Origin: an uncultured Actinomycetota bacterium
GTDB lineage: Bacteria; Actinomycetota; Actinomycetes; Jiangellales; Jiangellaceae
Assembly: GCA_963799425.1 (NCBI GenBank)
Contig: CAWCXA010000011.1
Span: 99,263 to 163,262 of the forward strand
Direction of reading: 5' to 3'
Length of the DNA stretch: 64,000 bases
Shown: piece after piece, positions 6,266 to 19,300 of the stretch
Layout of the letters: each line of letters begins with the position of its first letter
How positions within the stretch are numbered: the first letter of the stretch is position 1
The notes under the pieces: model-generated
The model's database searches: none
Seen by the model: only the letters and a program-made list of their open reading frames with translations
What the model was told of the DNA's origin: nothing
Position numbers and translations under genes: made by a program

Positions 6266-6499
6266 CATCGTCGCCGCGACTGTTACAGCTCCTCGATGGC
6301 GGCCTGCGCAGTTCCTGCACCGAATCCGTCGCATCGCCGATTACCCGAGCAGGGGATGACGGGATAGTCGAATCGTCGGCACACGCTCCGCCGCCGACGT
6401 CAGAGCCTCACCAACAGCACGACGTTCAGGATCCTGCAGTCCTTGCGTCACGACATCGGCGCCGGATCGCAGGTCCATCCCCTGAGAGAAGGGACCGGC

Positions 6500-7072
6500 A
6501 TGCCTCGCATCGGTGTCATTCTTGGAAGTACCCGCCCTGGTCGGCGAGGTGAGCAGGTCGCCCGATGGGTGATGGACATCGCCAGTCGGCGCAACGACGG
6601 AGAGTTCGAGCTCGTCGACCTCGCCGACTACCCGCTCCCGCACTTGGACGAGCCGCTGCCGCCAAGCATGGGTCAATACCAGAACGCGCATACACAGCAC
6701 TGGGCGGCGACCATCGGGCGCTTCGACGGTTTCGTCTTCGTCACACCCGAGTACAACCACTCCACCTCGGGCGTGCTCAAGAACGCGATCGACTACCTCT
6801 ACGCCGAGTGGAACGACAAAGCCATGGGCGTCGTCTCCTATGGCGCCGTCGGCGGCGCGAGAGCCGCCGAGCACCTGCGCCTGATCGCTGGTGAGCTGCA
6901 GATGGCAGACGTACGGACGAATGTTGCACTGTCCTTGTTCAACGACTTCGAGAACTTCACCGACCTCACACCCGCCGCGTACCAGCGGGAGGCGCTGGAG
7001 ACACTGCTCAGTCAGGTCATCGCCTGGAGTCAGGCGCTGGCACCGCTCCGCACGCTTCTTCGCGCCGCCTGA
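6500..7072 (+). CDS. NAD(P)H-dependent FMN reductase-family oxidoreductase
   Basis: ORF 6443..7072 trimmed to ATG 6500 (MPRIGVILGSTRPGRRG...). Flavodoxin-like FMN_red pattern VFVTPEYNHSTSGVLKNAIDYL. Confidence 0.8.
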   Translation: MPRIGVILGSTRPGRRGEQVARWVMDIASRRNDGEFELVDLADYPLPHLDEPLPPSMGQYQNAHTQHWAATIGRFDGFVFVTPEYNHSTSGVLKNAIDYLYAEWNDKAMGVVSYGAVGGARAAEHLRLIAGELQMADVRTNVALSLFNDFENFTDLTPAAYQREALETLLSQVIAWSQALAPLRTLLRAA

Positions 7073-7107
7073 CATCTACGACTGCCCTTGACAGGAGGTA
7101 CCTGGTC

Positions 7108-7989
7108 ATGAATGTGACACTCACCGGTGCAACCGGGTTCATCGGATCTCACGTACTGGCGGAGCTCCAAGCACACGGTCACGAGGTGACGGCGCTTGTG
7201 CGCGACGACGCCCAGGCCGACGTCGTCTCCGCCCGTGGCGCCAAGCCGACCGTCGTCGACCTCTATGACCGACCGGCGGTAGCCGATCTGCTCAGCAGTG
7301 CAGACGGAGCTATCCACACCGCCAGTCCGGGCGACGCCACCAGCGCAGCCTTGGATTCGGCCGTCGTGGATGCCGCGATCAATGCGTTCGCGGGCACTGG
7401 CAAGCCATACCTTCACATCAGCGGTCTATGGGTGTACGGCGCCAACCCGTCCATCACCGAGCAGTCCCCTTTCAATGCACCTGCACTGGTGTCGTGGAGG
7501 GAACCGATCGAACGCCGAATACTCAGCGCGGAAGACATGCGCGGAGTCGTGATCGTTTCCGGTGTCGCGTACGGCGACGGGGGCGGCGGGGTTCCCGGAC
7601 TGCTTCTGGGATCGCCCCGAGACGACGCGGGCAATCTGATCATGCTCGGCACGGGACAACAACACTGGCCGACCGTCCATGTTGCGGATCTGGCTGACAT
7701 GTTCCGCCGCGCGTTCGAATCCGGCTCGGCCCGCGGCTACTACGTCATCGGCAACGGAGAGAATTCGACCGCTGCGGACCTGACCGCAGCGGCCGCCGTC
7801 GCAGTCGGCGCTCCGGGAGCGGTTCCCGGTTCAGACGACGAGGCTCGGGCGCGCTTAGGCGACTACTTTGCCGAAGTCCTCCTGCTCGATCAGAGCACCG
7901 TCGCAGCCAAGGCTCGATCAGAGCTTGGTTGGTCCCCCAGCCACCCGGGACTCGTCGACGAGTTCCGCCACGGTAGCTATCGGAAGTGA
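7108..7989 (+). CDS. NAD-dependent epimerase/dehydratase-family (atypical SDR) protein
   Basis: 293 aa. N-terminal Rossmann motif MNVTLTGATGFIGSHV. AGGAGG about 9 nt upstream of the ATG. Confidence 0.8.
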   Translation: MNVTLTGATGFIGSHVLAELQAHGHEVTALVRDDAQADVVSARGAKPTVVDLYDRPAVADLLSSADGAIHTASPGDATSAALDSAVVDAAINAFAGTGKPYLHISGLWVYGANPSITEQSPFNAPALVSWREPIERRILSAEDMRGVVIVSGVAYGDGGGGVPGLLLGSPRDDAGNLIMLGTGQQHWPTVHVADLADMFRRAFESGSARGYYVIGNGENSTAADLTAAAAVAVGAPGAVPGSDDEARARLGDYFAEVLLLDQSTVAAKARSELGWSPSHPGLVDEFRHGSYRK

Positions 7990-8012
7990 GAGTCTGCGGA
8001 GCCTGATCCATC

Positions 8013-8894
8013 GTGGGTACCTCGACATTCCCACTCGGCAGCCGCCAAGTGCGACGGACTGGGTACGGCGCGATGCAGCTCGCCGGCCCCAACGTCTTCG
8101 GCGGGCCGGACGACCCGGTCGCTGCCATGGGCGTTCTGCGAGCTGCCGTCGCCGCCGGAGTCGATCACATCGACACTGCCCAGTACTACGGTCCGGACAT
8201 CGTCAACGAGCTGATCCGCGACGCGCTCTACCCCTACTCGCCGGAGCTGGCGATCGTCAGCAAGGTCGCTGCCCGCCGGGACGAGGTGGGCGCGGTGCTG
8301 CCCTATGACGACCCCGACCAGCTGCGCGCGGGCATCGAGGACAACCTGCGCAGCCTAAGGGTGGACCGGCTGGCCGCGGTCAACCTGCGCCTGCTCGGGC
8401 ACGGCCTGGTCGACGCCCGCTTCGACGACCAGCTGGCCGCCATGGTGCAAGCCCGCGACGACGGGCTCATCGCGGGAGTTGGGTTGAGCAACGTCAGCCT
8501 CGAACAACTGCGGCACGCCCTACAGGGCACCGACATCGTCTGCGTGCAGAACATGTTCCACCTCGCCGACCGCGGGGACGCCCCGGTCCTCGCCGAATGC
8601 TTCAACCGGGGCATCGCCTACGTCCCGTTTTGCCCACTGGGCTGGCCGCGTGGCCGGGCCAACCCGGTCCTCACCAACCCGGTGGTCATCACAACGGCCG
8701 CCCGCCTCGGCATCACTCCGGCGCAAGCTGCGCTGCGCTGGCTGCTTCAAGTCGCGCCAAACGTCCTGCTGATCCCCGGCACGGCCTCGCTTGCTCATCT
8801 CAAGGACAACCTGGCTGCCGAAGACGCGGTTCTTGACGAGCAAGCGCTGCGCGATCTTGACGGGGTCGGCGTCACGCGGCGCAGTTGGCCTTGA
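8013..8894 (+). CDS. aldo/keto reductase
   Basis: 293 aa with a GTG start. AKR-like motifs GYGAMQLAG, DHIDTAQYYG and LRVDRLAAVNLR. Confidence 0.85.
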   Translation: MGTSTFPLGSRQVRRTGYGAMQLAGPNVFGGPDDPVAAMGVLRAAVAAGVDHIDTAQYYGPDIVNELIRDALYPYSPELAIVSKVAARRDEVGAVLPYDDPDQLRAGIEDNLRSLRVDRLAAVNLRLLGHGLVDARFDDQLAAMVQARDDGLIAGVGLSNVSLEQLRHALQGTDIVCVQNMFHLADRGDAPVLAECFNRGIAYVPFCPLGWPRGRANPVLTNPVVITTAARLGITPAQAALRWLLQVAPNVLLIPGTASLAHLKDNLAAEDAVLDEQALRDLDGVGVTRRSWP

Positions 8895-8984
8895 GGAACA
8901 GCTGGGCATCAGCTCGGGGGAAGCGATGGACGCTGCGTGCGATCGCGGCACCCAAGTAGTCGACGGTGAGCTGGTCGACGCGGC

Positions 8985-9206
8985 TCACAAACGGAGCCAC
9001 ACGCTCAGGAGGCTAAGCACACGGGCAGTCGGATAGAACACAAGGCATGCGCCGACGAAGCCGCCGGCGAAGCAGAACACGAGTTAACGGATCGGCCCGA
9101 AGGCGTCCTCGACGTTCCTTCCGAAGATGTCCAGGAACAGCAGGTTGCCGAGGATGTGATCCTGACTGCCATGCGTCCAGCTCGGATTCGCTGCGCAGAA
9201 AGCTGC
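8985..9206 (-). pseudogene. rhomboid-family intramembrane protease remnant (TM2-TM3 region only, in-frame TAA)
   Basis: The minus-strand translation is AAFCAANPSWTHGSQDHILGNLLFLDIFGRNVEDAFGPIR*LVFCFAGGFVGACLVFYPTARVLSLLSV. It keeps the rhomboid H-x3-N and FG-x-NVE-D motif, but no N-terminus and no GxSG or His of the catalytic dyad were found. The stop lies at 9084-9086. Confidence 0.4.
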
Positions 9207-9514
9207 TGACCTGCACGAGTGAGGAGATGGCACTGCCAGGGATGAATCCGAGCTGACCGGTGACCAGTGCGTACCCGATCCACCCCGGCTGCACGGCCGC
9301 ACCGAGCAGCCAGCCCCACCACGCCCGGCGTCCAGCCGACCACAGGGCAAGCACCTGCAGGCCCGTCAGGACCCAAGGCCAGTACACAGGCGCCCCGAGG
9401 CGCGTGTCGATCCGTCCAGGAGGACACCATGACGCCCAGCGCCAGGCTGCCGCTGAGGGCGCAGAAGACCGCAAGTCGCCGGTAGCGGTCGCGGCGCATG
9501 ACGATGCTCGTCAT
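9196..9514 (-). pseudogene. small multi-TM membrane protein gene, apparently frameshifted near 9400
   Basis: ATG at 9514 overlaps the AI-2E stop (ATGA) and gives MTSIVMRRDRYRRLAVFCALSGSLALGVMVSSW. Protein-like TM sequence then continues only in another frame (VYWPWVLTGLQVLALWSAGRRAWWGWLLGAAVQPGWIGYALVTGQLGFIPGSAISSLVQVSSFL). The original frame becomes Arg/Ala/Cys-rich nonsense. Confidence 0.35.
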
Positions 9515-10674
9515 GTCGCGAGCGGCGTCGCCGCCTGGCCCTCGGGTGGCGTTTCCGGGGCGGTCGCCTGCCATAGCTCCCGGGCGACCACTTGCAGTGC
9601 GCCCGCGGTGGGAATGGAAATCAGCGCTGCCACGAAGCTGCCGAAGAAACCGCCGACCCAGCTCCCGATCGACGTTCCGACCAGGATGGACACGAGAACG
9701 AGCAACGGATTGACGCGCACCGTGCGGCTCATCACCACGGGGTTCAGCACATGGTTCTCAATCTGCTGATAGGCAATGAAGACGGCCGCGGTGACGATGC
9801 CCGCGGTCAGCGAGTGGCCTAGGGCGTACAACACAGTGGGGATCCCTGCCAGCGCGCCGCCGACCATCGGCAGGAAGTCGACCAGGGCGACCCACAGGGC
9901 CCACAGCAACGGGAAGGGAATCTGGAGGGCCGTGAGCGTGACGAACACTGTGGCGCCGGCGATCACAGACGTCAGGAGGTTGCCCACCATGTAGCCGGTC
10001 ACCGACTGGTTGATCTCATGGGCTATTCGGGCATAACGGCTGGCACGCTCCGGCGGCAGCAAGGCCAGCAGTCCACGGCGCATCTTGGGGCCCTCAAGCA
10101 GCAGAAGCACCACGAGCACGGCGACGGTCCCCAGCGTCAACACCAGTGACGCTGCACCCTTGCCGACGGTGAGCGCCGGCTTGGCCAGGCCCTCACCGAT
10201 GGTCTCCAGCTTGGGGGCGTTCTGCTGCACCCAGGCTGCCAGGTGGAAGCGGCGCACCAGGTCGCCGATCCACCCGTGGCCATCTTGCGCGTCCTGGACG
10301 TAGGTAGGCAGCTGCTGCGACAGGTTGGTGAGCCCGCGCAGCAGTGGAGAACCGAAGGCCAGCATCAGGCCGGTGAAGACCAGCGCCGCCCAGAAGGTCA
10401 CGACTGCCACTGCCCAGCCGCGACGCCGGATTCCTCGGCGTTGTAGGTAAAGCACCAGCGGGTTCAGGATCAGGGCGATGAATCCCGCGATGGTCATCAT
10501 GAGAAGGACGTCGCGTAGCCGGTAGATGACCCTGCCCGCGAGGTAAGCGCCAGCAACTACGGCGACGGTAGTGATGATCGTGGCCAGCGGGACGCCCCGG
10601 TCGGCGGCGGCGACCGAAAGACGACCCCGCCGAGTGGGCACCGGGCGGGTCGCATCAACCTCGTCGGTGGTCAT
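9511..10674 (-). CDS. AI-2E family transporter (PerM-like permease)
   Basis: 387 aa and multi-TM. Family-typical C-terminal half ...LWALWVALVDFLPMVGGALAGIPTVLYALGHS.... Confidence 0.85.
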   Translation of the reverse strand: MTTDEVDATRPVPTRRGRLSVAAADRGVPLATIITTVAVVAGAYLAGRVIYRLRDVLLMMTIAGFIALILNPLVLYLQRRGIRRRGWAVAVVTFWAALVFTGLMLAFGSPLLRGLTNLSQQLPTYVQDAQDGHGWIGDLVRRFHLAAWVQQNAPKLETIGEGLAKPALTVGKGAASLVLTLGTVAVLVVLLLLEGPKMRRGLLALLPPERASRYARIAHEINQSVTGYMVGNLLTSVIAGATVFVTLTALQIPFPLLWALWVALVDFLPMVGGALAGIPTVLYALGHSLTAGIVTAAVFIAYQQIENHVLNPVVMSRTVRVNPLLVLVSILVGTSIGSWVGGFFGSFVAALISIPTAGALQVVARELWQATAPETPPEGQAATPLAT

Positions 10675-10924
10675 GCCTAACTTCCTCGTGGACCGTTGGT
10701 GATCCGTTCCCGTCTACGGACGACCCGGTGACTGCCGCGATGGCACCACCTAGCGATAAGGCGACCGCGGTGACCGCCAATACGACCAGAATTGCCAGTC
10801 GCCCCGGGATGCGTCGTCTGCGCGGTGTGAGGCGCCGCTCGAACCGACGTACGAACGCAGGGTCATAGCGGCGCAGCACCGTCTCGATCTCGGCCAGCTT
10901 GCGCCACTCCGCGTCGCTGATCAT
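10655..10924 (-). CDS. DUF3040-like small membrane protein
   Basis: ORF trimmed to ATG 10924. MISDAEWRKLAEIETVLRRYDPAFVRRFERR is followed by a single TM (LAILVVLAVTAVALSLGGAIAAV). Confidence 0.7.
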   Translation of the reverse strand: MISDAEWRKLAEIETVLRRYDPAFVRRFERRLTPRRRRIPGRLAILVVLAVTAVALSLGGAIAAVTGSSVDGNGSPTVHEEVRHDHRRG

Positions 10925-10971
10925 GGCAATACCTCGATTCGTAGCTGACCCGGAGTCGACGGCTGCAGTCA

Positions 10972-11598
10972 TCACGACGCACCGATCAAGCCGTTCGCGA
11001 GTGCGAACAGCACGAGCTCAGCGCGTGTCCCGAGCCTGAGCTTCCGCATGATGTGGGCACGATGCGTATCGACCGTCCGCACCGAGATGTAGAGCTTCTT
11101 GCCGATCTCCTGGTTCGTGTAGCCGAGCGCGAGCAGATGGAGGACGTCGCGTTCGCGGTCCGAAAGCGGCCCAAGGGCGGCCACCTCGTCCGCGACGACG
11201 AGTTGCGCGCCGAGGCTCGGATCGACGTAGCGTTCACCGGCCGAGACCCGGCGGATCGCCTCGATCAACTCGGTGACAGACGCTCGCTTGGGCACATAGC
11301 CGCGGGCGCCAGCCGTGATTGCCTGCCGTACCGACGTCGGTTGGGTCTGTGACGAGACGACCAACACGTGCGTCGCCGGGGACACTTTCAGCAGGTCCGG
11401 GATGACGTCGTAGCCGTTCCTCCGTGGCAGGACCACATCGAGCAAGACCACGTCGGGCTGCAATGCGCGGGCTTTGATGACCGCCTGCTCGGCGGTCCCG
11501 GCTTCGCCGACCGGCACAATGCCGTCCTCGTGCTCCAGCCGCAGGCGCAGCGAGGAGCGGAACAGTTCGTGGTCGTCGACGAGGAGAATGCGGATCAT
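10972..11598 (-). CDS. NarL/FixJ-family response regulator (receiver + LuxR HTH)
   Basis: ORF trimmed to ATG 11598 (MIRILLVDDHELFRSS...). C-terminal HTH LSDRERDVLHLLALGYTNQEIGKKLYISVRTVDTHRAHIMRKL. The start overlaps the kinase stop (ATGA at 11595-11598). Confidence 0.9.
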   Translation of the reverse strand: MIRILLVDDHELFRSSLRLRLEHEDGIVPVGEAGTAEQAVIKARALQPDVVLLDVVLPRRNGYDVIPDLLKVSPATHVLVVSSQTQPTSVRQAITAGARGYVPKRASVTELIEAIRRVSAGERYVDPSLGAQLVVADEVAALGPLSDRERDVLHLLALGYTNQEIGKKLYISVRTVDTHRAHIMRKLRLGTRAELVLFALANGLIGAS

Positions 11599-12287
11599 CG
11601 GTCGGTGCCGGTCAGGACGATCACCGCGCGGGTTCCGCCACCCGTGCGTGGCTTGAGCTCCAGCACACCCCCGAACCGGGCAACAAGCCGGCGACACAGG
11701 GCGAGGCCAAGCCGAGCGCCAGTGGTGTAGCCGTCGGTCGACCCGAGACCAACGCCGTCGTCGTCGACGACGAGGGCCCACCGATTCTCGGTAGCGACAG
11801 CCGAGACATGGACGCGGTTAGCGCCGGCCGCGATGGCGTTCGCCAGCAGATTCCGGAGTACGAGACGGAGGGCGGCCGGCGGCATCGGAAAGTCGCCCGT
11901 CGCGCTCGTGATCACCTCGGCGCGGATGTCGCCGAGGTCGGCCACGGCCTGCCGCACGCAATCGGCGATCGGCGCGAGGCCGTCGCTTGCCCGATCGGCG
12001 TGCACCGCCTCCAGGATGGAGTCGACAAGCTCGAGCGCGCGCTTCAGGCCCTCGCGCGGCGCGTCGCGCAGCAGGGCGGATAGCAGCGACGACCTGACGT
12101 CGTGGGCGACGAGTCCGGCGAAATCCTCAAGCGCCTCGTTCCTTCGCGCAAGCCGGGCGGCTTGCTCGGCAAGCTGCTCCGCGGTGTCGTGCACGCCCTG
12201 CCGGCCGGTCGCGAGCGCAACGTCGCGACCCCCGTGCCAGTCCGTGTAGCCCTCCTGGGTGCCGTCTGTCGCAGTTATCGTGCTCAT
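11595..12287 (-). CDS. soluble sensor histidine kinase (HisKA + HATPase_c only)
   Basis: 230 aa with no predicted TM or recognisable sensor domain. H-box FAGLVAHDVRSSL and ATPase boxes RNLLANAI, VVDDDGVGLG and GARLGLALCRRL. GAAGGA RBS upstream of ATG 12287. Confidence 0.8.
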   Translation of the reverse strand: MSTITATDGTQEGYTDWHGGRDVALATGRQGVHDTAEQLAEQAARLARRNEALEDFAGLVAHDVRSSLLSALLRDAPREGLKRALELVDSILEAVHADRASDGLAPIADCVRQAVADLGDIRAEVITSATGDFPMPPAALRLVLRNLLANAIAAGANRVHVSAVATENRWALVVDDDGVGLGSTDGYTTGARLGLALCRRLVARFGGVLELKPRTGGGTRAVIVLTGTDR

Positions 12288-12505
12288 GACCTGGGTTCCT
12301 TCTGCTGGAGAGGTCTTTGATGGCCTTGAGGTGCTCCGTGAGGACGATGCTCGGGTCCTGGTGAGATGCCCATGAGAGCGTGTGCGGTGCTGATGCGACT
12401 ACCCTCGCGCCGATCGGCGCCCGTCGTACCCGGGGCATACCCGGGGTAGTCACCTGGTCGACCCCGGGGACGGGCTCCGGTGGCCCGGGTGGCGAGTCGC
12501 ACGCC

Positions 12506-12541
12506 CCTCGGCGGCGGCCCCGTGGGGGAGCGCCGCCGAGG
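12506..12541 (-). terminator. GC-rich stem-loop downstream of the 472-aa repeat-protein gene
   Basis: Perfect 11-bp stem CCTCGGCGGCG / CGCCGCCGAGG with a 14-nt loop, 20 nt beyond the stop at 12561. There is no U-tract (I-shaped actinobacterial type). Confidence 0.5.
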
Positions 12542-12560
12542 AGCGTTGTGTCAGGTTGTG

Positions 12561-13979
12561 TCAGTACGCGCCGCCGCCTTGGATGAACGTGCCAGTCACG
12601 TCCATGACGAGTGCGCCTTGCTCCGCGTCGCCGATCTGTGCGTTGACGTCGCCCGTACCACCGATCACGACGTTGCCGTCATCGCGTGTGATGACGATGT
12701 TCTCGCCGACGGCGCGGTTGTCGTCGTCGTCGTAACCGTCAGCGCCGATGACGATCGCTTCCGATCCGGACGCGAGCGTGGTGCCTTCGTCGGTGTGCAC
12801 GGCGGTCGCGGCCCCGCCGCTGGCGTGCTCGACCCACGACTCGTACGGGAAGTCGAAGTCGTCGCCCCCCGTCGAGGGAGATGGGAGGACTGCTGCGGTG
12901 GCGGCGGGCGATGTGGGAGACGACGACTGCGTGGCCTGAGTCGCCGGCGTCCCGATGAGACCGGGAAGTGCGTCACCGTTCGGCTCCGCCGCCTCGGCGA
13001 GGTCATCGGAGTCCTCATCGTCATCGGAGTCCTCATCGTCGTCGGCGGGTGGCGGCTCGTCTCCGTTGCCGCCGCCGGAGGCGAGGTCGACGAGGGCCGC
13101 CGCCATCGTTTGCCAGGGCGCCTCATCCGCGGACTCGCTCCCACGGATGAAGGAGTCGGTGGCATCGATCACGTTCAATCCGCTCGCGTCAATGTCTCCG
13201 GTGTTCGCGTTGATCTGCCCGTTGCGGTCTCTGAAGAAGTTCGAGTCGTCCGTCGTTACAAGGATGTTCCGACCTGCGACGTCGGTCCGGTACGACTCCC
13301 ACTCCGAGAACGCGACCCCGCGGGATGTGGCGCCCGGCAGGGGGTTCCAGAGGTTCTGGGCGAAGAACGGCGGACTCACGAGAGGAGGCAGCGGTTGCGT
13401 CGGCCCCCAAGCGCCGATGCCAGTGACTGGGAACGAGAGCGGCGTGGCGATCGGTGGTTGCGCAGCGCTGGGGAGAGAGACGGGGGCTACGTCGGCGGGG
13501 ACGCGCATCGGTGTCCCCACGACGTTGTCGTCGGTGGGCGTGGCCTGGGTGTTGCTGGGTGCGGGAGCAGCACTCGGGCCGGCGGGCGGGTCGGGGGTGT
13601 TCGAGCCACCGGTGACAGAGACGATGCGGACGCTGCTGTTTGGGGTGGTTGCTTGGCCGCGATAACCGTCGGGCGTCGCGACGATCTGGACTGTGCTGTT
13701 GACTGTTGCGGCGGCACCCTCGAGCGCCACTGCGGGTGGGGATGGGGCATCGTTGGTGACCGCCGGCGCGGCCGGGTCGGGCGCGCCGATGCTGCCCGGA
13801 GCGGCGTCGCCGGTCGCGGGATCCACGACCGGCGCACCAATGTCGGGTGCGGGCGGCGCCGTCGACGCGGTGCTCGCCATGACCAGGTCGGCGGCGCCGA
13901 TCAGCCAGCCACCGACGCAACCGACGGCGGCCAGGAAACCGACGATCAGCCATCTGAGGGAATTTGCAGGGATGTACAT
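12561..13979 (-). CDS. membrane-anchored secreted repeat protein (unrecognised ~60-aa repeat, acidic linker), paralogue of 13995..15308
   Basis: 472 aa. N-terminal TM (LRWLIVGFLAAVGCVGGWLIGAA) and Pro/Ala-rich spacer. Repeats end in NANTGDIDASGLNVIDATDSFIRGSES and GDVNAQIGDAEQGALVMDVTGTFIQGGG. GAAAGGA RBS. Confidence 0.7.
   Translation of the reverse strand: MYIPANSLRWLIVGFLAAVGCVGGWLIGAADLVMASTASTAPPAPDIGAPVVDPATGDAAPGSIGAPDPAAPAVTNDAPSPPAVALEGAAATVNSTVQIVATPDGYRGQATTPNSSVRIVSVTGGSNTPDPPAGPSAAPAPSNTQATPTDDNVVGTPMRVPADVAPVSLPSAAQPPIATPLSFPVTGIGAWGPTQPLPPLVSPPFFAQNLWNPLPGATSRGVAFSEWESYRTDVAGRNILVTTDDSNFFRDRNGQINANTGDIDASGLNVIDATDSFIRGSESADEAPWQTMAAALVDLASGGGNGDEPPPADDDEDSDDDEDSDDLAEAAEPNGDALPGLIGTPATQATQSSSPTSPAATAAVLPSPSTGGDDFDFPYESWVEHASGGAATAVHTDEGTTLASGSEAIVIGADGYDDDDNRAVGENIVITRDDGNVVIGGTGDVNAQIGDAEQGALVMDVTGTFIQGGGAY
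13002..13037 (-). repeat. 2 x 18-bp in-frame tandem repeat (encodes DEDSDD DEDSDD)
   Basis: GTCATCGGAGTCCTCATC occurs twice in tandem on the plus strand, inside the acidic linker of the 472-aa protein. Confidence 0.9.
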
Positions 13980-13994
13980 GGGGACAGTCCTTTC

Positions 13995-15308
13995 TCACGG
14001 TGAGGTTGGAGTTGGTGACGTCTGGGAGGCGGAGTTGCCGGTCGTGATCTGCGAATCGGTGATGTCCATCACCACCGCGCCACTCGTGTCGCTGTCGCCG
14101 ACCTGGGCGTTCACGTCGCCGACGCCACCGACCGCGACGTTCCCGTCGTCGGAGGTCGCGACGTTGTGATCGCCGTGCATTGTGACGCTGGCGTCGACGA
14201 CCCCGTTGCCGCCGATGACCAGCGAGTCAGCCCCGGACGCCGTAGCGGTGCCGTTCTGGGAGGTCACGGACGCCGAAGCGGTCCCCGGCGCCGGGGTCGG
14301 CACTGCCACCACCGGCGTGGACCGGGCAGGCTCAGCTGACGAGGCGGAACTGCCGGAGCGGACCACCGAGCGCGTCGCGTCAACGACGTTCAAGCCGCTC
14401 ATGTCGGTGTCACCGGTGTTCCCGTTGAGATCGCCGGCGCGGTGATAGAAGACGTTCGAGTCGTTGTTGGTCAACAGGTTGTGGTTGCCAACGACCTCAA
14501 GCGCTTTGTTCTCGTAGCCCGCGATTGCGACCGCGCGTGTAGGCGGCCCGCTGCCCGCAGCCGTGTTCGTCGTCGCGGTGGCGACGGGTGCGCCCCCCTG
14601 GGTGCCCGTCGGAGATCCTGGCGTCGTTCCAGAAGACCCGCCGGCCGACACGCCGTGGGAACTACCGGACGTGACCACTGAATCGACGACCTCGAGGGCG
14701 ATTACGCCGCTTGCTGCCGCATCGCCGGTGTTCGCCTTCACGACGGTGTTGTCGCCCACCGAAATGATCGAACCGTTGTTCGCGATCACAATGTGATCGC
14801 CGATCGCGATCACGGACAGGCCTTCCACCCGATCGGCACCGCGGATTCCAGTTGGCCCGGAATCCGTGAGCTCCCGTGACGAATCGCCCACGAGGCGCGT
14901 CTGCGTTGCCGAGAACATTGGCGCGGACGCGGACGCGACCGAGCGAGGCGAGAAAGACGTAAACGTCTGCGTCGGCGCGGAGCCGGACGAGGCCGAACGC
15001 CGGGAGGATGACATGATCCTGTACGTGGACGCCCGCGGCGTACGTGCCGTGTGTGCGCTACTGGGCACGGGCAGCAAGGCGACCGGCGGTCCTGCCTGGC
15101 TGACTGGCGCTTCGGGCATCACGATCGTGACATTGACGGGCGGACTCGCCGATTGACCTCGCGGGACCGCTGCCGCCGGCCGCGAGGAATCGGCCGGTGC
15201 GACGGTACTTGTTCGCGAGCCGTCGGCGACGGCTGCGCGCAGCATTCCTCCGACGAAGAGTGCCACGAGAGCACCTACTCCCACGAGCAACCACTTCGGT
15301 ATGACCAC
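13995..15308 (-). CDS. membrane-anchored secreted repeat protein (three copies of the ~60-aa repeat)
   Basis: 437 aa with a GTG start and AGGAAAGGAAAG upstream. N-terminal TM (WLLVGVGALVALFVGGML). Three repeats end in KANTGDAAASGVIALEVVDSVVTSGSS, NGNTGDTDMSGLNVVDATRSVVRSGSS and GDVNAQVGDSDTSGAVVMDITDSQITTGNS. Confidence 0.7.
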   Translation of the reverse strand: MVIPKWLLVGVGALVALFVGGMLRAAVADGSRTSTVAPADSSRPAAAVPRGQSASPPVNVTIVMPEAPVSQAGPPVALLPVPSSAHTARTPRASTYRIMSSSRRSASSGSAPTQTFTSFSPRSVASASAPMFSATQTRLVGDSSRELTDSGPTGIRGADRVEGLSVIAIGDHIVIANNGSIISVGDNTVVKANTGDAAASGVIALEVVDSVVTSGSSHGVSAGGSSGTTPGSPTGTQGGAPVATATTNTAAGSGPPTRAVAIAGYENKALEVVGNHNLLTNNDSNVFYHRAGDLNGNTGDTDMSGLNVVDATRSVVRSGSSASSAEPARSTPVVAVPTPAPGTASASVTSQNGTATASGADSLVIGGNGVVDASVTMHGDHNVATSDDGNVAVGGVGDVNAQVGDSDTSGAVVMDITDSQITTGNSASQTSPTPTSP

Positions 15309-15446
15309 GGGACTTTCCTTTCCTAATTAGCGCGGCGATATGGCTTCTCCGTGGCCGTCGTCAGCCACAGGTGTCTACATCGATGGCGACCATCGTGCGT
15401 ATCGACTAGGGAGAGTCACGGCCGTCGTGTAAGCCGGTGCGTGCCG

Positions 15447-16136
15447 TCAGCTGGTGACATCGAGCAACCGTGCGAACACGACCACGTTGTCCAGGTAGTG
15501 CCCGGACGAGCGGTCGAACGCCCCGCCACAAGTGATCAGGCGCAGCTCCGGCGACTGGGTCGGGCCGTACACCCGCTCGGTGGGGAAGCTGTCCTTGTCG
15601 TGCTGCTCGCGGGCGACGACCTCGAACCGGGCCACCGAACCGTCGGCGCGTTCGACCTCGACAAGCGCGCCAGGCGCCAGCTCCCGCAATCGGTAGAACA
15701 CGGCGGGGGCTGTCTTCGAGTCGATGTGGCCAGCGATCACGGCCGGCCCCGGTTCGCCCGGTACGGGCCGGTGCACGTACCACCCGGCCACCGAGAAGTC
15801 CTCGGGTACTTGGAGGGTGCCGTCAGGATTGAGGCCGAGGTCCACAAGGGGGGAGTTGACCCCGATCGAAGGAATCCTGACCACCGTGGGCGGCGGAGGC
15901 GGAGCGGGCACGGGTGCTGACGCCGTGGGCGGGGGCGGCGGAGCGGGCAGGGGGGGCGGTGAAGGTTTGAGCATGTCGCCGGTTGTCGTTGCGACTTCGG
16001 CGTCACTGGGTTGGCGCAAGGCCTCGGCGGGGGCCCTGGCGACCAGTCCGGTCACCGAGACGGTGACCAAGAAGAGGCCCAGCATGGCGGACATGGCGGT
16101 CAGGACAGGCCGCAGCGGACGGGATCGACGGTTCAT
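15447..16136 (-). CDS. class F-like sortase
   Basis: ORF trimmed to ATG 16136 with a GGAGG RBS. N-terminal TM and Pro-rich linker. Core motifs IPSIGVNSPLVDLGL, AGWY, PAVIAGHID and LRLITCGG (catalytic Cys), ending DNVVVFA. Confidence 0.8.
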   Translation of the reverse strand: MNRRSRPLRPVLTAMSAMLGLFLVTVSVTGLVARAPAEALRQPSDAEVATTTGDMLKPSPPPLPAPPPPPTASAPVPAPPPPPTVVRIPSIGVNSPLVDLGLNPDGTLQVPEDFSVAGWYVHRPVPGEPGPAVIAGHIDSKTAPAVFYRLRELAPGALVEVERADGSVARFEVVAREQHDKDSFPTERVYGPTQSPELRLITCGGAFDRSSGHYLDNVVVFARLLDVTS

Positions 16137-16250
16137 CGGTCGAGCCTCCGGGTGGTGAATCGAGTGTGATGCGCGTCGGTGGCCCGCACCCGCTGTGCGA
16201 GCCACCGATGCGTCAGGCGGCTTGCGCGGTCCCGGAAGGACCGCACCGTC

Positions 16251-16961
16251 TTACAGGGTGTCGCTCGACCCGGCGACGGCCGTGGCCGTCGAGCGGCGCC
16301 GGGCGGCCATCGCGCCCGCGGCGAGGAGCGCGAGGCCAGCACCACCGGCGAGCGTCAGCGGGAGGGTGCCCTCGCTGCCGTCACCGCCAGCAAGGAAGCC
16401 GCCACCAGTGGCGGCGCCGCCCTGAGGCGTGGCGCCCATCACGGGGTTAGCGGCCTGGCTCACACCGGTGCTGACCGGTGCGGCCTGGACCGGGCTCGGG
16501 GAGCCGGAGGGTGAGCTCTGGCTCGGGCCGGCCGGGGGCGCGATGGCGTCCGAGTCCGCCTCGTCGTCCTCGCTGTCGCCGGAGGAATCTGCCGGCTCCG
16601 CCGCCTCGGGGGCTTCGGTCGCGGCCGGGTCTTCGACGTCTGCCGGGTCTTCGACGTCTGCCGGGTCTTCGACGTCTGCCGGGTCTTCGACGTCTGCCGG
16701 GTCCTCGACGTCGGCTGGGTCCTCGACGTCGGCTGGGTCTTCGACGTCGGTCGGGTCCGTGGTGCCGGTGTCCTCGGGATCAGCCTGCTCCTCAGGCGCC
16801 TCGGGAGCCTCGGGAGCCTCGGGCAGGTCGGCCGTCTCAGTGACCCCGGACTCGTTGGGGTCGGGACCGGGATCGGTCTGGGCGTCCGCGGGAAGACCGA
16901 CCGCGATGCCGAGCATCATGGTCGCCGCCGCCACGGGGGTTAGGAGAATTGTCTTGCGCAT
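16251..16961 (-). CDS. secreted acidic tandem-repeat protein with C-terminal sorting-signal-like tail
   Basis: ORF trimmed to ATG 16961 (signal peptide MRKTILLTPVAAATMMLGIAVGLPADA). Contains (DPADVE)x7. The C-terminus reads TLPLTLAGGAGLALLAAGAMAARRR followed by a 13-aa tail. Confidence 0.7.
   Translation of the reverse strand: MRKTILLTPVAAATMMLGIAVGLPADAQTDPGPDPNESGVTETADLPEAPEAPEAPEEQADPEDTGTTDPTDVEDPADVEDPADVEDPADVEDPADVEDPADVEDPADVEDPAATEAPEAAEPADSSGDSEDDEADSDAIAPPAGPSQSSPSGSPSPVQAAPVSTGVSQAANPVMGATPQGGAATGGGFLAGGDGSEGTLPLTLAGGAGLALLAAGAMAARRRSTATAVAGSSDTL
16627..16752 (-). repeat. 7 x 18-bp in-frame tandem repeat (DPADVE units)
   Basis: GGGTCTTCGACGTCTGCC is repeated head-to-tail on the plus strand: 4 identical copies, then 3 variants. 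Confidence 0.95.
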
Positions 16962-17421
16962 GGTCTTGCTCCTTTGAGTTGGGTCGTGTCGAGCCGGTCG
17001 GATCGACACGGGCAGTGCGCGCGCCGTTCCACCACCGTCACGTCGATCCGCCTTTCTCGTCCCCGGGGCAGACCCGGGTCCGGTCCCTTGGCTGAGCCCC
17101 GGGGTGTGTGTGCCCGTGCTCGGCCTACTGGGCGAGTGACGCGGCGCAGAAAAACGGGCGAGATGCGAATAGCTAGCCGCACGCGTTGTGCCGGGTCGAC
17201 CTAGCCGCGCACATCTCCAATTGGTGAATGGCTACGTCGTGAGACTCGTCGCATCGACGCTGGCGGGGAGCAACCGGACCGACGTGCACGCACTGCCGCT
17301 GTCACGACGGGGTTGCCTTCTTCGTCGTCCTTTCCGCAACCACTCCGCGATGGCTCCGATGACGCGGAAGGTGCTGGCGGCTGACGATGGAGTGTCCGAT
17401 CAACAACGAAAGGAGCACGGA

Positions 17422-18075
17422 ATGTCCATGAACGACGACCTGGCGGCCGACGCCATCGCCGAGCTGTTCTGGGACCCCAAGGTGGACAACGAAGCTGTCT
17501 CTGTCTCCGCGGACGGCGGCAACATCACCCTGCGGGGGACCGTCGGGAGCCTGCGCGAGAAGCACGAGGCGCAGAAGGCGGTGCAGCGGGTGTACGGCGT
17601 GACCTCGGTCGACAACCAGCTGCAAGTGCGGCTGCTGAATGACCAGAGGCGCTCCGACGCCGACCTCCGCGGTGACGTCCTACAGGCGCTCATGCTCGAC
17701 AGCCTCATCCCGAGCACGGTCGACGCGAAGGTGGCGGACGGCTTCGTCACCCTCACCGGGACTGCGAACTGGCAGTACCAGCGCGACGAGGCCGAGTTTG
17801 TCGCCGAGAACATCGCCGGCGCTCTTGACGTCCTTGACGAGATCGAGCTCAAGCCCCCGACACCCAACGCCGGGGATACGAAGGACTCGATCGGGAGGGC
17901 GTTCAAGCGCAACGCGGCATTCGACGCCGACAACCTCCAAGTCTCGACCGATAACGGCACCGTGACCATTTACGGCACCGTGCGCTCATGGGCCGAACAC
18001 GACGAGGCCATCGATGCAGCGTGGGCGGCGCCGGGCGTCATGTCCGTGCGCGACGACATGACGATCGCGTACTGA
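17422..18075 (+). CDS. BON domain-containing protein (OsmY-like, three BON repeats)
   Basis: ORF trimmed to ATG 17422 with AAAGGAG 7 nt upstream. Repeated pattern ...VSADGGNITLRGTV.S..E...A...V.GV..V.N.L.V. Confidence 0.85.
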   Translation: MSMNDDLAADAIAELFWDPKVDNEAVSVSADGGNITLRGTVGSLREKHEAQKAVQRVYGVTSVDNQLQVRLLNDQRRSDADLRGDVLQALMLDSLIPSTVDAKVADGFVTLTGTANWQYQRDEAEFVAENIAGALDVLDEIELKPPTPNAGDTKDSIGRAFKRNAAFDADNLQVSTDNGTVTIYGTVRSWAEHDEAIDAAWAAPGVMSVRDDMTIAY

Positions 18076-18181
18076 CACGCAGCTGCAGGCGGCGCGCACG
18101 GTGTCACCCCGCCGCTCGCGCCGCCTGCGGTCACCGGGGGCCGCTGGCTCTCGCCCGACTTGAAGGAAAGGAACCCCTGTT

Positions 18182-18736
18182 ATGTTCAAGTCAACGTCCA
18201 CCTCATTGATCCTGCTTGGCGTCCTGAGCGTCATCGTTGGGATCGTCGCGATCGCCTGGCCTAGCGTGACCGTTCTCGCGCTGGTCATCCTGTTCGCGAT
18301 CTACGCATTCATCGGCGCGGGCCTTGCGGCCACGCGCGCGTTCAACAGCGCCAGTGCAGGACCGGTCGTCGGCTATCTGCTGCTTGCGCTGATCGACATC
18401 GCCGCCGGTGTGGTCGCCCTGGTCTGGCCAGGTCCCACCGCGCTGGTGCTCGTACTCGTCGTCGCCATCTGGGCGTTCGTGGCTGGCTTCGTCGAGATCT
18501 TCGCTGCCTTCGGCAGCGGGGAGACCGCGGGCACCCGGGCGTTGTTCATCGTGACCGGGCTCGTGTCGATCGCGTTCGGCGTGGTCCTCAGCGCCCGTCC
18601 CGACATCGGGGCGACCACCCTGGCGCTGCTGTTTGGCCTGTACACCATGGTCTACGGAGTGTTGGAGATCGTGGTGGGCGTCCAAATGCGCAACACCGGG
18701 CGGACCTTGGACCGGGTTTTGCAAGACGCAGTCTGA
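18182..18736 (+). CDS. HdeD-family (DUF308) membrane protein
   Basis: 184 aa with six TM-like segments. N-terminus LILLGVLSVIVGIVAIAWPSVTVLALVILFAIYAFIGAG is typical of the family. Confidence 0.8.
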   Translation: MFKSTSTSLILLGVLSVIVGIVAIAWPSVTVLALVILFAIYAFIGAGLAATRAFNSASAGPVVGYLLLALIDIAAGVVALVWPGPTALVLVLVVAIWAFVAGFVEIFAAFGSGETAGTRALFIVTGLVSIAFGVVLSARPDIGATTLALLFGLYTMVYGVLEIVVGVQMRNTGRTLDRVLQDAV

Positions 18737-18862
18737 ACCGGGACATGGCGCGCGCCGACCGCACACGTGGCAGACGCCCCGGTGTACGTCTGCCAAGCCC
18801 TCGCCCGGCTTGGCAGACGCCTCACCCGCAACTCGGCCGTACCAAGAACGAGAGGCACCACG

Positions 18863-19300
18863 ATGGCAAAGCCTGAGGGGCGCACCGCACAGCCGGAGAC
18901 ACCCCGCCACCACCCGGTTGTCCTCGAGCAACAGGCGCAACGTGCCCAGGACGTCCAGGTGCGAATCGCCGACTGGATCACGGCCTTCGCGGGGTCGATG
19001 AACTTTGTCTACATTCACGTCGCGCTGTTCACCGTCTGGATGCTGTTCATCGAGTCAAAGCCGTGGCCGATGCTGACGCTGGTGGTGTCGCTGGAAGCGA
19101 TCTTCCTCTCCACCTTCGTCATGATCGGCCAGAACCGGCAGGCTGCCTTCCAGCAGGACAAGGCCGACCACGACTTCAACGAACAAGAGCTGGAGCTCAA
19201 GACCAACACCCAGCTGACTCGGGAGATCCACACCCTCACCACCGAACTGCACAACCGACTGCTAAAGGGCTCGGTTGGAAACGGTCGGCCGGCGGCGTGA
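18863..19300 (+). CDS. DUF1003 domain-containing membrane protein
   Basis: ORF trimmed to ATG 18863. The core is ADWITAFAGSMNFVYIHVALFTVWM...LTLVVSLEAIFLSTFVMIGQNRQAAFQQDKADHDF. Confidence 0.75.
   Translation: MAKPEGRTAQPETPRHHPVVLEQQAQRAQDVQVRIADWITAFAGSMNFVYIHVALFTVWMLFIESKPWPMLTLVVSLEAIFLSTFVMIGQNRQAAFQQDKADHDFNEQELELKTNTQLTREIHTLTTELHNRLLKGSVGNGRPAA

Follow-up and report, generated by a model that had tools for sequence, protein, structure and literature searches.

A conserved gene pair encoding predicted membrane-anchored proteins with an undescribed repeat in an uncultured Actinomycetota bacterium

Results

Genes A and B

The DNA analysed here (the window) is a stretch of 64,000 nucleotides from an uncultured Actinomycetota bacterium of the family Jiangellaceae (GenBank assembly GCA_963799425.1, contig CAWCXA010000011.1, positions 99,263 to 163,262 of the forward strand). 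Its positions 12561-15308 hold two adjacent genes, A and B, whose products share a repeat that belongs to no described family. An initial annotation, made from the nucleotide letters and a list of open reading frames (ORFs), had placed two ORFs here, 15 bp apart. Both were confirmed on the minus strand, with an intergenic gap of 15 bp, and the following features were assigned.

Gene A, 13995-15308, minus strand: ORF of 437 aa with a predicted N-in signal anchor, a disordered stalk and three repeats (ORF, homologues, AlphaFold2 model)
Ribosome-binding site of A, 15313-15323, minus strand: GGAAAGGAAAG, 4 nt ahead of the GTG start (read from the sequence)
Gene B, 12561-13979, minus strand: ORF of 472 aa with a predicted signal anchor, a Pro-rich stalk, a repeat, a poly-Asp/Glu linker, a second repeat and the C-terminus …FIQGGGAY (ORF, B-type alignment, census)
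GC-rich hairpin (16+4 bp), 12501-12546, minus strand: begins 17 nt past the stop codon of B (RNA fold)

Gene A starts with GTG at 15308 and gene B with ATG at 13979, each being the earliest possible start in its own open frame (443 codons for A and 477 for B), and a GAAAGGA-type ribosome-binding site precedes both starts. The GC content at third codon positions (GC3) is 0.65-0.93 along the two frames. The hairpin behind B has a folding energy of -47 kcal/mol (z = -4.87), and 0 of 200 shuffled sequences were equally stable. It has no T-tract and is not classed as a canonical terminator by the pattern scan, and canonical promoter and terminator scans of 12200-15500 found nothing; the hairpin probably ends the A-B transcript. 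Because of the 15-bp gap, the matching ribosome-binding sites and the hairpin after B, the two genes are read as an operon, which would be a bicistronic unit distinct from the kinase and regulator genes downstream.

The recorded automatic gene call for A (P0003) is only 272 aa long and lacks the transmembrane (TM) segment and the stalk. We prefer the 437-aa form because the N-terminal 'IPK' plus TM segment is kept in distant homologues. Homologues of A span 97-100% of its length at 40-62% identity. Recorded calls cut A-type genes to 272-274 aa at three loci (window 13995-15308; L017:8001-8825; L014:9657-10923), and B-type genes are broken by such calls into two or three pieces.

The repeat shared by A and B

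The copies of the repeat are listed below with their scores against a hidden Markov model (HMM) of the repeat.

A repeat R1, 14652-14852, minus strand: divergent copy in which GDAAASG replaces GDTDTSG; 66.5 bits; hhalign to R2 and R3, E ~2e-6
A repeat R2 (…NNDSNVFYHRAGDLNGNTGDTDMSGLNVVDATRSVVRSGSS), 14340-14549, minus strand: counterpart of B repeat 1; 101 bits; BLASTP to B219-287
A repeat R3 (…SDDGNVAVGGVGDVNAQVGDSDTSGAVVMDITDSQITTGNS), 14025-14234, minus strand: counterpart of B repeat 2; 88 bits; BLASTP to B386-469
B repeat 1, 13125-13334, minus strand: invariant motifs SEWESYRTD…TTDDSN…NTGD.DASGLN; 86.7 bits
B repeat 2 (…DDDDNR…RDDGNVV.GGTGDVNAQIGD.EQGA.VMDV…IQGGGAY), 12564-12767, minus strand: ends at the stop codon; 70.3 bits; invariant columns

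BLASTP of A against B gave two collinear modules, A257-325 with B219-287 (48% identity, E 5e-17) and A340-424 with B386-469 (47% identity, E 8e-17). The two proteins are thus paralogues on one plan of TM anchor, stalk and repeats, as the initial annotation had claimed. Among the A-type modules, hhalign related R2 to R3 with an E-value of 5.5e-13, R1 to R2 with 2e-6 and R1 to R3 with 1.8e-6. By the repeat HMM, A has exactly three copies and B exactly two, which agrees with the earlier count of three and at least two, and no further copy was found in the window or in the whole 4.07-Mb genome.

The core of the repeat is 55-70 residues long (about 65). Its skeleton is composed of strands and G-x-x-N-h-h-T-x-D-D-(S/G)-N-h, followed by G-x-h-N-(G/A)-(N/Q)-(T/h)-G-D-x-D-x-S-G-h-x-V-h-D and then by S-x-h-x-x-G-x-S. 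R3 of A has, in the alignment, a conserved N-terminal extension of about 20 residues, as far as about 14291. Three of the five repeats (R2, R3 and B repeat 1) contain DxDxSG loops. A search for sub-periodicity inside the repeat gave only a faint signal of about 10 residues and no clear solenoid coil length.

Architecture and predicted structure

A transmembrane helix, residues 5-31, 15216-15296, minus strand: preceded by 'h-I/V-P-K'; AlphaFold2 helix; Kyte-Doolittle maximum 2.32; motif recurs in homologues
A stalk, residues 32-157, 14838-15215, minus strand: low-complexity Ser/Thr/Pro/Ala (model confidence, composition); length varies in homologues
B transmembrane segment, residues ~10-32, 13884-13952, minus strand: hydrophobicity maximum 2.15 at residue 11; aligns to the TM segment of A
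B acidic linker, residues 291-375, 12855-13109, minus strand: between both repeats; 20 Asp+Glu and 0 Lys+Arg

The AlphaFold2 (AF2) model of A, built on a 57-row alignment, has a mean predicted local distance difference test (pLDDT) score of 63 and a predicted template modelling (pTM) score of 0.48. It consists of a helix at residues 5-31 (pLDDT 79-94), a disordered part at residues 32-156 (pLDDT 31-49) and three all-beta blocks (pLDDT 77-88) with many strands of 3-7 residues. By composition, the stalk of A is net basic (38 Ser+Thr and 16 Pro), and the repeat blocks are acidic and Cys-free. In every B-type homologue the linker between the two repeats is acidic, and its length varies. Since half of the chain is disordered, the pTM of 0.48 suggests that the three repeats of A may form one body. 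A single repeat modelled alone on a 27-row alignment reached a pLDDT of 45. The initial annotation had proposed a beta-solenoid or another beta-rich surface module with Asp-rich turns that might bind cations. The beta-rich part of that proposal agrees with the all-beta model; the solenoid and the cation-binding turns are plausible only, the matches to solenoids in the structure search described below having E-values of 0.13 or more.

Only 4-9 residues of A and B precede the membrane segment and would be cytoplasmic. In the homologues Lys/Arg is conserved ahead of the TM segment and neutral or acidic residues lie behind it. Since Lys/Arg precedes the TM segment, the positive-inside rule points to an N-in, C-out topology for both proteins. 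Many A-type homologues end in the Cys pair AGCEGDLC, which fits export, and the disordered stalk rich in Pro/Ser/Thr also agrees with a location outside the cell.

A family of strictly paired genes

A word-indexed search gave 56 homologues, all recorded as 'hypothetical', none with a Pfam domain and nearly all of metagenomic origin. The exhaustive search with the repeat HMM gave only 200 matches, a tiny family, among 1.84 billion representative proteins, 163 of them at E <= 1e-10. These matches carry three, two or one matched stretch, and none carries more than three. In a census of 192 sequences, three repeats were found in 113, two in 47 and one in 32; those that are shorter or have one repeat are apparently fragments for the most part. 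The repeat proposed from this one locus aligns well across roughly 200 homologues.

The IPK+TM motif stands at the start of A-type proteins. In B-type proteins the last residues are always exactly …(F/Y)IQGGGAY, and there are long invariant runs, among them SEWESYRTD, HTDEGTT, DDDDNR, RDDGN and GGGAY; as far as the sequences indicate, B is under much stronger constraint than A. The order of the genes is kept as well: at all 11 of the 11 loci with enough DNA, a three-repeat gene is followed by a two-repeat gene and then by GGGAY-stop. A and B of the window have the same features, namely 'h-I/V-P-K/R' followed by a TM segment in both, three repeats in A, two repeats and GGGAY-COOH in B, and A directly before B. 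Each carrier genome has one A-B pair.

These observations bear on the trivial explanation that A and B are spurious ORFs in high-GC low-complexity DNA or that the repeats arose by chance. The high-GC DNA of this region has long ORFs in several frames, and the gene caller shortened A to 272 aa. However, about 200 homologous clusters under strong purifying selection and with invariant motifs, the GC3 bias in the correct frame, the order and architecture kept in 11 loci and the significant homology among the repeats refute such an artefact, and we regard it as practically dismissed.

The distribution of the family is patchy. Where a carrier has a name, it is a soil metagenome-assembled genome of the Acidimicrobiales, Acidimicrobiia or 'Actinomycetes'. 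A search of 60 relatives, among them 2 from the same genus and another 34 from the same family, gave no copy of the repeat, and neither did 400 genomes sampled across the class. At the DNA level, about 13 kb of the window (~6270-19290) is missing from the two same-genus genomes, in which both flanks are 84-91% identical; therefore the A-B pair lies in an accessory segment of about 13 kb, and it is a rare accessory pair. The segment carries genes for an AI-2E permease, the two-component system, B, A, a sortase, an acidic protein, and BON, HdeD and DUF1003 proteins, and it shows no obvious GC anomaly.

Comparison with known families and structures

The repeat had been described as unassignable to any known family, and profile searches bear this out. 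Pfam gave no family on A and only TRAPP14_N on B (E 0.31), NCBIfam and PADLOC gave no match on the whole proteins, and Pfam on 27 single repeats gave a best E-value of 0.007 with scattered unrelated names. The full-length profile matched only TonB in PDB (E 0.84), an artefact of the TM segment and the Pro-rich spacer. The repeat is an undescribed domain family at the level of a domain of unknown function (DUF), on the familiar general plan of anchor, stalk and repeats.

The repeat profile had only marginal matches among all PDB sequences, to lectins of garlic and other monocot bulbs. This raises the possibility that A and B carry lectin-like heads, in which A would fold its three repeats into a three-fold beta-prism akin to the bulb-type (beta-prism II) lectins, and the glycans bound would be those of the cell wall or of the environment. 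The lectins are the sole PDB sequence matches of the profile (full-sequence E 1.4e-3), A has exactly three repeats, its full-length model is seemingly one body and a lone repeat does not fold in prediction. Against this, the per-domain E-value is 0.3 and the match covers about 30 residues, that is, one simple strand-DGN-strand hairpin, 'G-N-x-V-L-V-L-Q-E-D-G-N-V-V-I-Y'. The QxDxNxVxY sugar-binding motif is not conserved and is reduced to T-Y-D-D-G-N-V, the repeat, at about 65 aa, is twice the length of a lectin subdomain (about 35 aa), only two repeats are present in B, and no beta-prism is among the Foldseek matches. Pfam B_lectin (PF01453) did not match the proteins, the 27 repeats or the genome. 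That model is silent in all 151 phylum genomes (this genome and 150 others) and in the controls, and this family identity is rejected at the HMM level only. Lectin-like heads seem to us a remote prospect.

The best Foldseek matches of the model in PDB are beta-solenoids, namely FapC, CsgA, HpmA, tapirin, an ice-binding protein and left-handed beta-helices, with E >= 0.13 and TM-scores of at most 0.18. Curli CsgA and Pseudomonas FapC, the top neighbours, likewise have short strands, Gly/Asn-rich turns and imperfect tandem repeats. A functional amyloid or fibre was therefore considered, in which repeats stacked in the manner of curli, FapC or chaplins would let anchored A and B nucleate or hold an extracellular beta-solenoid fibre. 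'Curlin associated' phage proteins are also among the Foldseek matches, and Gly/Asn/Gln/Ser/Thr are abundant in the repeats, which have GN-x-A-like turns. The long chaplins of Streptomyces, which are anchored by sortase, would be a precedent. Hydrophobic wall proteins dependent on class E sortase have been described (PMC13251363). However, the FapC and CsgA matches are not significant (E 0.13-9 and TM-scores of at most 0.14 overall; FapC 0.13, CsgA 1.7, TM-scores 0.05-0.12), and Pfam found neither the curlin repeat Sx5QxGxGNxAx3Q (PF07012) nor a chaplin. The strong acidity of the repeats speaks against amyloid stacking, and their number never exceeds three and is fixed at three plus two. No free secreted single-repeat subunit gene lies beside the pair, except for remnants in G424 and L018. 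Moreover, A and B are membrane-anchored in monoderm hosts, which have no CsgG/FapF secretion. An amyloid of this kind is very unlikely.

Three other identities were tried and rejected. DUF4097/LiaG (PF13349) gave no hmmscan match, and hhalign against 15 aligned DUF4097 domains of genomes in this class gave a probability of 0.1-0.2% (E 0.3-0.6); the genome has a separate, genuine DUF4097 gene elsewhere. No HemolysinCabind (PF00353) match supports an RTX beta-roll, and on inspection GGVGDVNAQ is off register and tandem GGxGxDxUx nonapeptides are absent. Neither protein has a C-terminal sorting signal, A ending in …SQTSPTPTSP and B in …FIQGGGAY, and a C-terminal hydrophobic segment was found in 0 of 192 homologues (maximum Kyte-Doolittle below 1.5). 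Judged from these termini, A and B are not conventional sortase substrates.

Neighbouring genes

Class F sortase, 15447-16205, minus strand: 138 bp upstream of A; NF033748 200 bits (cut-off 166); PF04203
Acidic (DPADVE)x7 secreted protein, 16251-17009, minus strand: C-terminal hydrophobic+RRR tail without LPXTG; weak sub-threshold matches to sorting-domain models; presumed sortase substrate
Soluble histidine-kinase-like protein, 11595-12287, minus strand: HATPase_c, no TM or sensor domain (Pfam)
NarL/LuxR-type response regulator, 10972-11598, minus strand: Response_reg and GerE (Pfam); likely start ATG at 11598

The pair in the window does stand between a sortase and a two-component system, as had been noted from the sequence. 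The stop codon of the kinase overlaps the likely start of the response regulator as ATGA (11595-11598), and the regulator, listed as an ORF of 269 aa, probably has 208 aa like its L017 orthologue.

The initial annotation had also asked if a class F sortase or this two-component system accompanies every homologue; this is not so, since outside close kin the exact neighbours differ. The surrounding set of genes is kept in close kin only, and the conserved unit is the A-B pair. In a sample of about 11 loci, some of them related, the recurring elements are gene types, not specific genes. A LuxR/GerE-type regulator lies beside the pair in every context examined: LAL regulators (AAA+TPR+GerE) in L004, L006, L008, L017, L018 and L019, NarL-type regulators with HisKA_3 kinases in the window, L015, L019 and the P0032 contig, MimR_N-GerE in L014, a GerE protein in L007, and BTAD-WD40 regulators in L019 and the P0032 contig. 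In about 6 of 10 independent contexts (window/L017, L014, L018, L019, G424 and G425), a sortase is located no more than 10 kb from the pair. It belongs to class F in the window, L017 and L014, and is class E-like in L018, L019, G424 and G425. With 3-6 sortases per genome of 5-6 Mb, the chance of such proximity is about 2% per locus, a comparison that, the loci being related, is not a formal test. Because the observed proximity is far above this level, the association is real but loose. The idea of a sortase dedicated to A and B is weakened, the neighbouring sortases being of two classes and absent in four contexts.

The constant presence of LuxR-family regulators suggests another role, that of a signalling accessory. 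A and B would then be extracytoplasmic sensors or modulators in the manner of LiaF/LiaG or of other anchored beta-helix proteins that partner HisKA_3/NarL systems, passing information on the envelope to the adjoining regulators. HisKA_3-type kinases with NarL regulators beside the pair in four contexts speak for it, as does the kinase of the window, which has no sensor domain of its own. LiaG/LiaF-type DUF4097 proteins are likewise membrane-anchored, extracytoplasmic and beta-rich, and are found beside HisKA_3-type kinases and NarL/LuxR regulators. A and B are, however, not homologous to them (no PF13349, hhalign 0.1%), and the DUF4097 protein of this genome is encoded elsewhere. A cytoplasmic part of 4-9 residues makes contact with the soluble kinase or with the cytoplasmic LAL regulators hard to envisage. 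In addition, dedicated sensor partners normally co-evolve with a single regulator, whereas the regulator type here varies by locus (LAL, NarL, MimR_N-GerE, BTAD-WD40). We consider a signalling role unlikely.

Proteins encoded just upstream of the class F sortases (window 16251-17009, L017:5787-6521 and L014:15300-15950) are acidic and of low complexity, and have a common QGGxxTGxGG motif and a C-terminal hydrophobic+RR(R) tail without LPXTG. This suggests that they may carry a non-canonical class F sorting signal. The wider neighbourhoods of L019 and the P0032 contig (JGI 3300041967), and also of L018, have in common a weak lysyl-oxidase-like protein, cupredoxin-like proteins, alpha/beta hydrolases, large BTAD-WD40 regulators and an S8 peptidase beside the sortase. 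These common genes hint at a larger, variably arranged gene set for the envelope or matrix.

Discussion

A proposed wall-spanning surface module

We tentatively favour the idea that A and B together form a heteromeric surface module that is rooted in the membrane and spans the cell wall, and we hold this to be possible, if somewhat short of probable. The conserved two-gene operon would supply the two subunits, each inserted through an uncleaved signal anchor with the N-terminus in the cytoplasm. A flexible Pro/Ser/Thr/Ala stalk of about 125-165 residues, long enough to span the cell wall, would display a compact, acidic all-beta head of three repeats in A or two in B. The repeats are predicted to consist of short strands with tight Gly/Asn/Asp/Ser turns, and those of one chain probably pack together in a solenoid-like or prism-like body. 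The DxDxSG loops and Asp clusters suggest that the head may be stabilised by divalent cations, probably Ca2+. From the constant pairing and the stronger constraint on B, a hetero-oligomer of A and B is most likely. The most probable role would be structural or adhesive, in the cell envelope, with expression probably under the LuxR-family regulators adjoining the pair. The module may belong with other accessory envelope genes, often a sortase and its low-complexity acidic substrate among them.

This plan resembles that of stalked, anchored surface proteins of Gram-positive bacteria, which likewise have an N-terminal TM segment, a long low-complexity spacer that spans the wall and tandem beta-rich repeats; the neighbourhood of A and B also holds a sortase and secreted low-complexity proteins. 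A and B differ from them in that the repeat has no relative in Pfam, NCBIfam or PDB, no LPXTG-type signal is present, the copy number is fixed at three and two instead of variable, and the paralogues form an obligatory pair. As for the cations, DxDxDG-type calcium-binding loops, reportedly treated by Rigden and Galperin in 2004, occur in EF-hand-like, dockerin and thrombospondin-type sites. GD(T/S)D(T/A)SG stands at the same place in R2, R3 and B repeat 1 and is followed by a hydrophobic strand and Asp. In contrast to the DxDxDG loops, the fifth ligand is Ser and not Asp.

Several points weigh against a wall-spanning module of this kind. The DxDxSG loop is missing in R1, which has no acidic residues there, and is shortened by a one-residue deletion in the last repeat of B. 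No function is indicated by homology in Pfam, NCBIfam, PADLOC or the PDB sequences, and Foldseek of the full-length A model found nothing below E 0.1 in PDB and BFVD. The five AF2 models are only moderately confident (mean pLDDT 44-63), the packing between repeats was judged from pTM alone, and the low pLDDT of the single repeat may merely reflect its shallow 27-row alignment. The lack of a sorting signal in both proteins also counts here. No sortase lies within ±8 kb in L004, L006, L015 and the P0032 contig, and two sortase classes are involved where one does. Furthermore, the varied regulators could mark regulator-rich accessory regions and not a dedicated control.

In a bolder form of the wall-spanning module, the repeat would be a new cation-dependent beta fold, and the heteromeric, membrane-rooted structure of A and B would cooperate with sortase-anchored acidic low-complexity proteins, as an accessory envelope system so far unrecognised in uncultured soil Actinomycetota. 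Class F sortases, the physiological role of which is still unknown (PMC13251363), would thereby gain a first functional partner set. We think that so much is distinctly unlikely to hold in full.

If the favoured reading holds, the repeat defines a new extracytoplasmic domain family for which Pfam has no entry and which lacks a structure and a cultured carrier. Its genetic signature is unusually rigid, always one three-repeat gene and then one two-repeat gene. It is a compact target for structure determination, and a new beta fold is possible. Acidimicrobiia-like soil bacteria are abundant and barely studied, and the family may help to understand the specialisation of their envelope. The recurrent nearness to two sortase classes and to LuxR-family regulators gives a testable handle on accessory sortase-linked surface modules. 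Since automatic calls truncate or split A and B, annotation would gain from a family model.

Further observations on the family loci

Palindromes were seen upstream of A-type starts: ATCACGTGAT in L004 and L006, ATCACACGATCGTGCGAT in L019, GATCGTGTGAT in L005 and CGATGGTCGCCATCG in the window (15309-15446). Those in L004, L005, L006 and L019 are located 60-110 nt upstream of the A-type genes. Such palindromes may be operators for the adjoining LuxR-type regulators.

In G424, a truncated single repeat (…TYDDANVFDGELNGNTGDTDTSGLNVVDTERS…; L020:4195-4674, G424:C13) is followed by sequence that is not protein-like. A class E-like sortase gene precedes it by about 90 bp, the A-B pair of G424 is 7.7 kb away, and this repeat is probably the remnant of an A/B-type gene. 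In L018, the B-type gene is directly followed by four tandem copies, of about 150 bp each, of its own 3' end (L018:10647-11248). They form mini-ORFs, each bounded by stop codons and ending in …FIR(G/S)GGA(Y/H)-stop, and could be a real cassette-like array or an artefact of long-read assembly.

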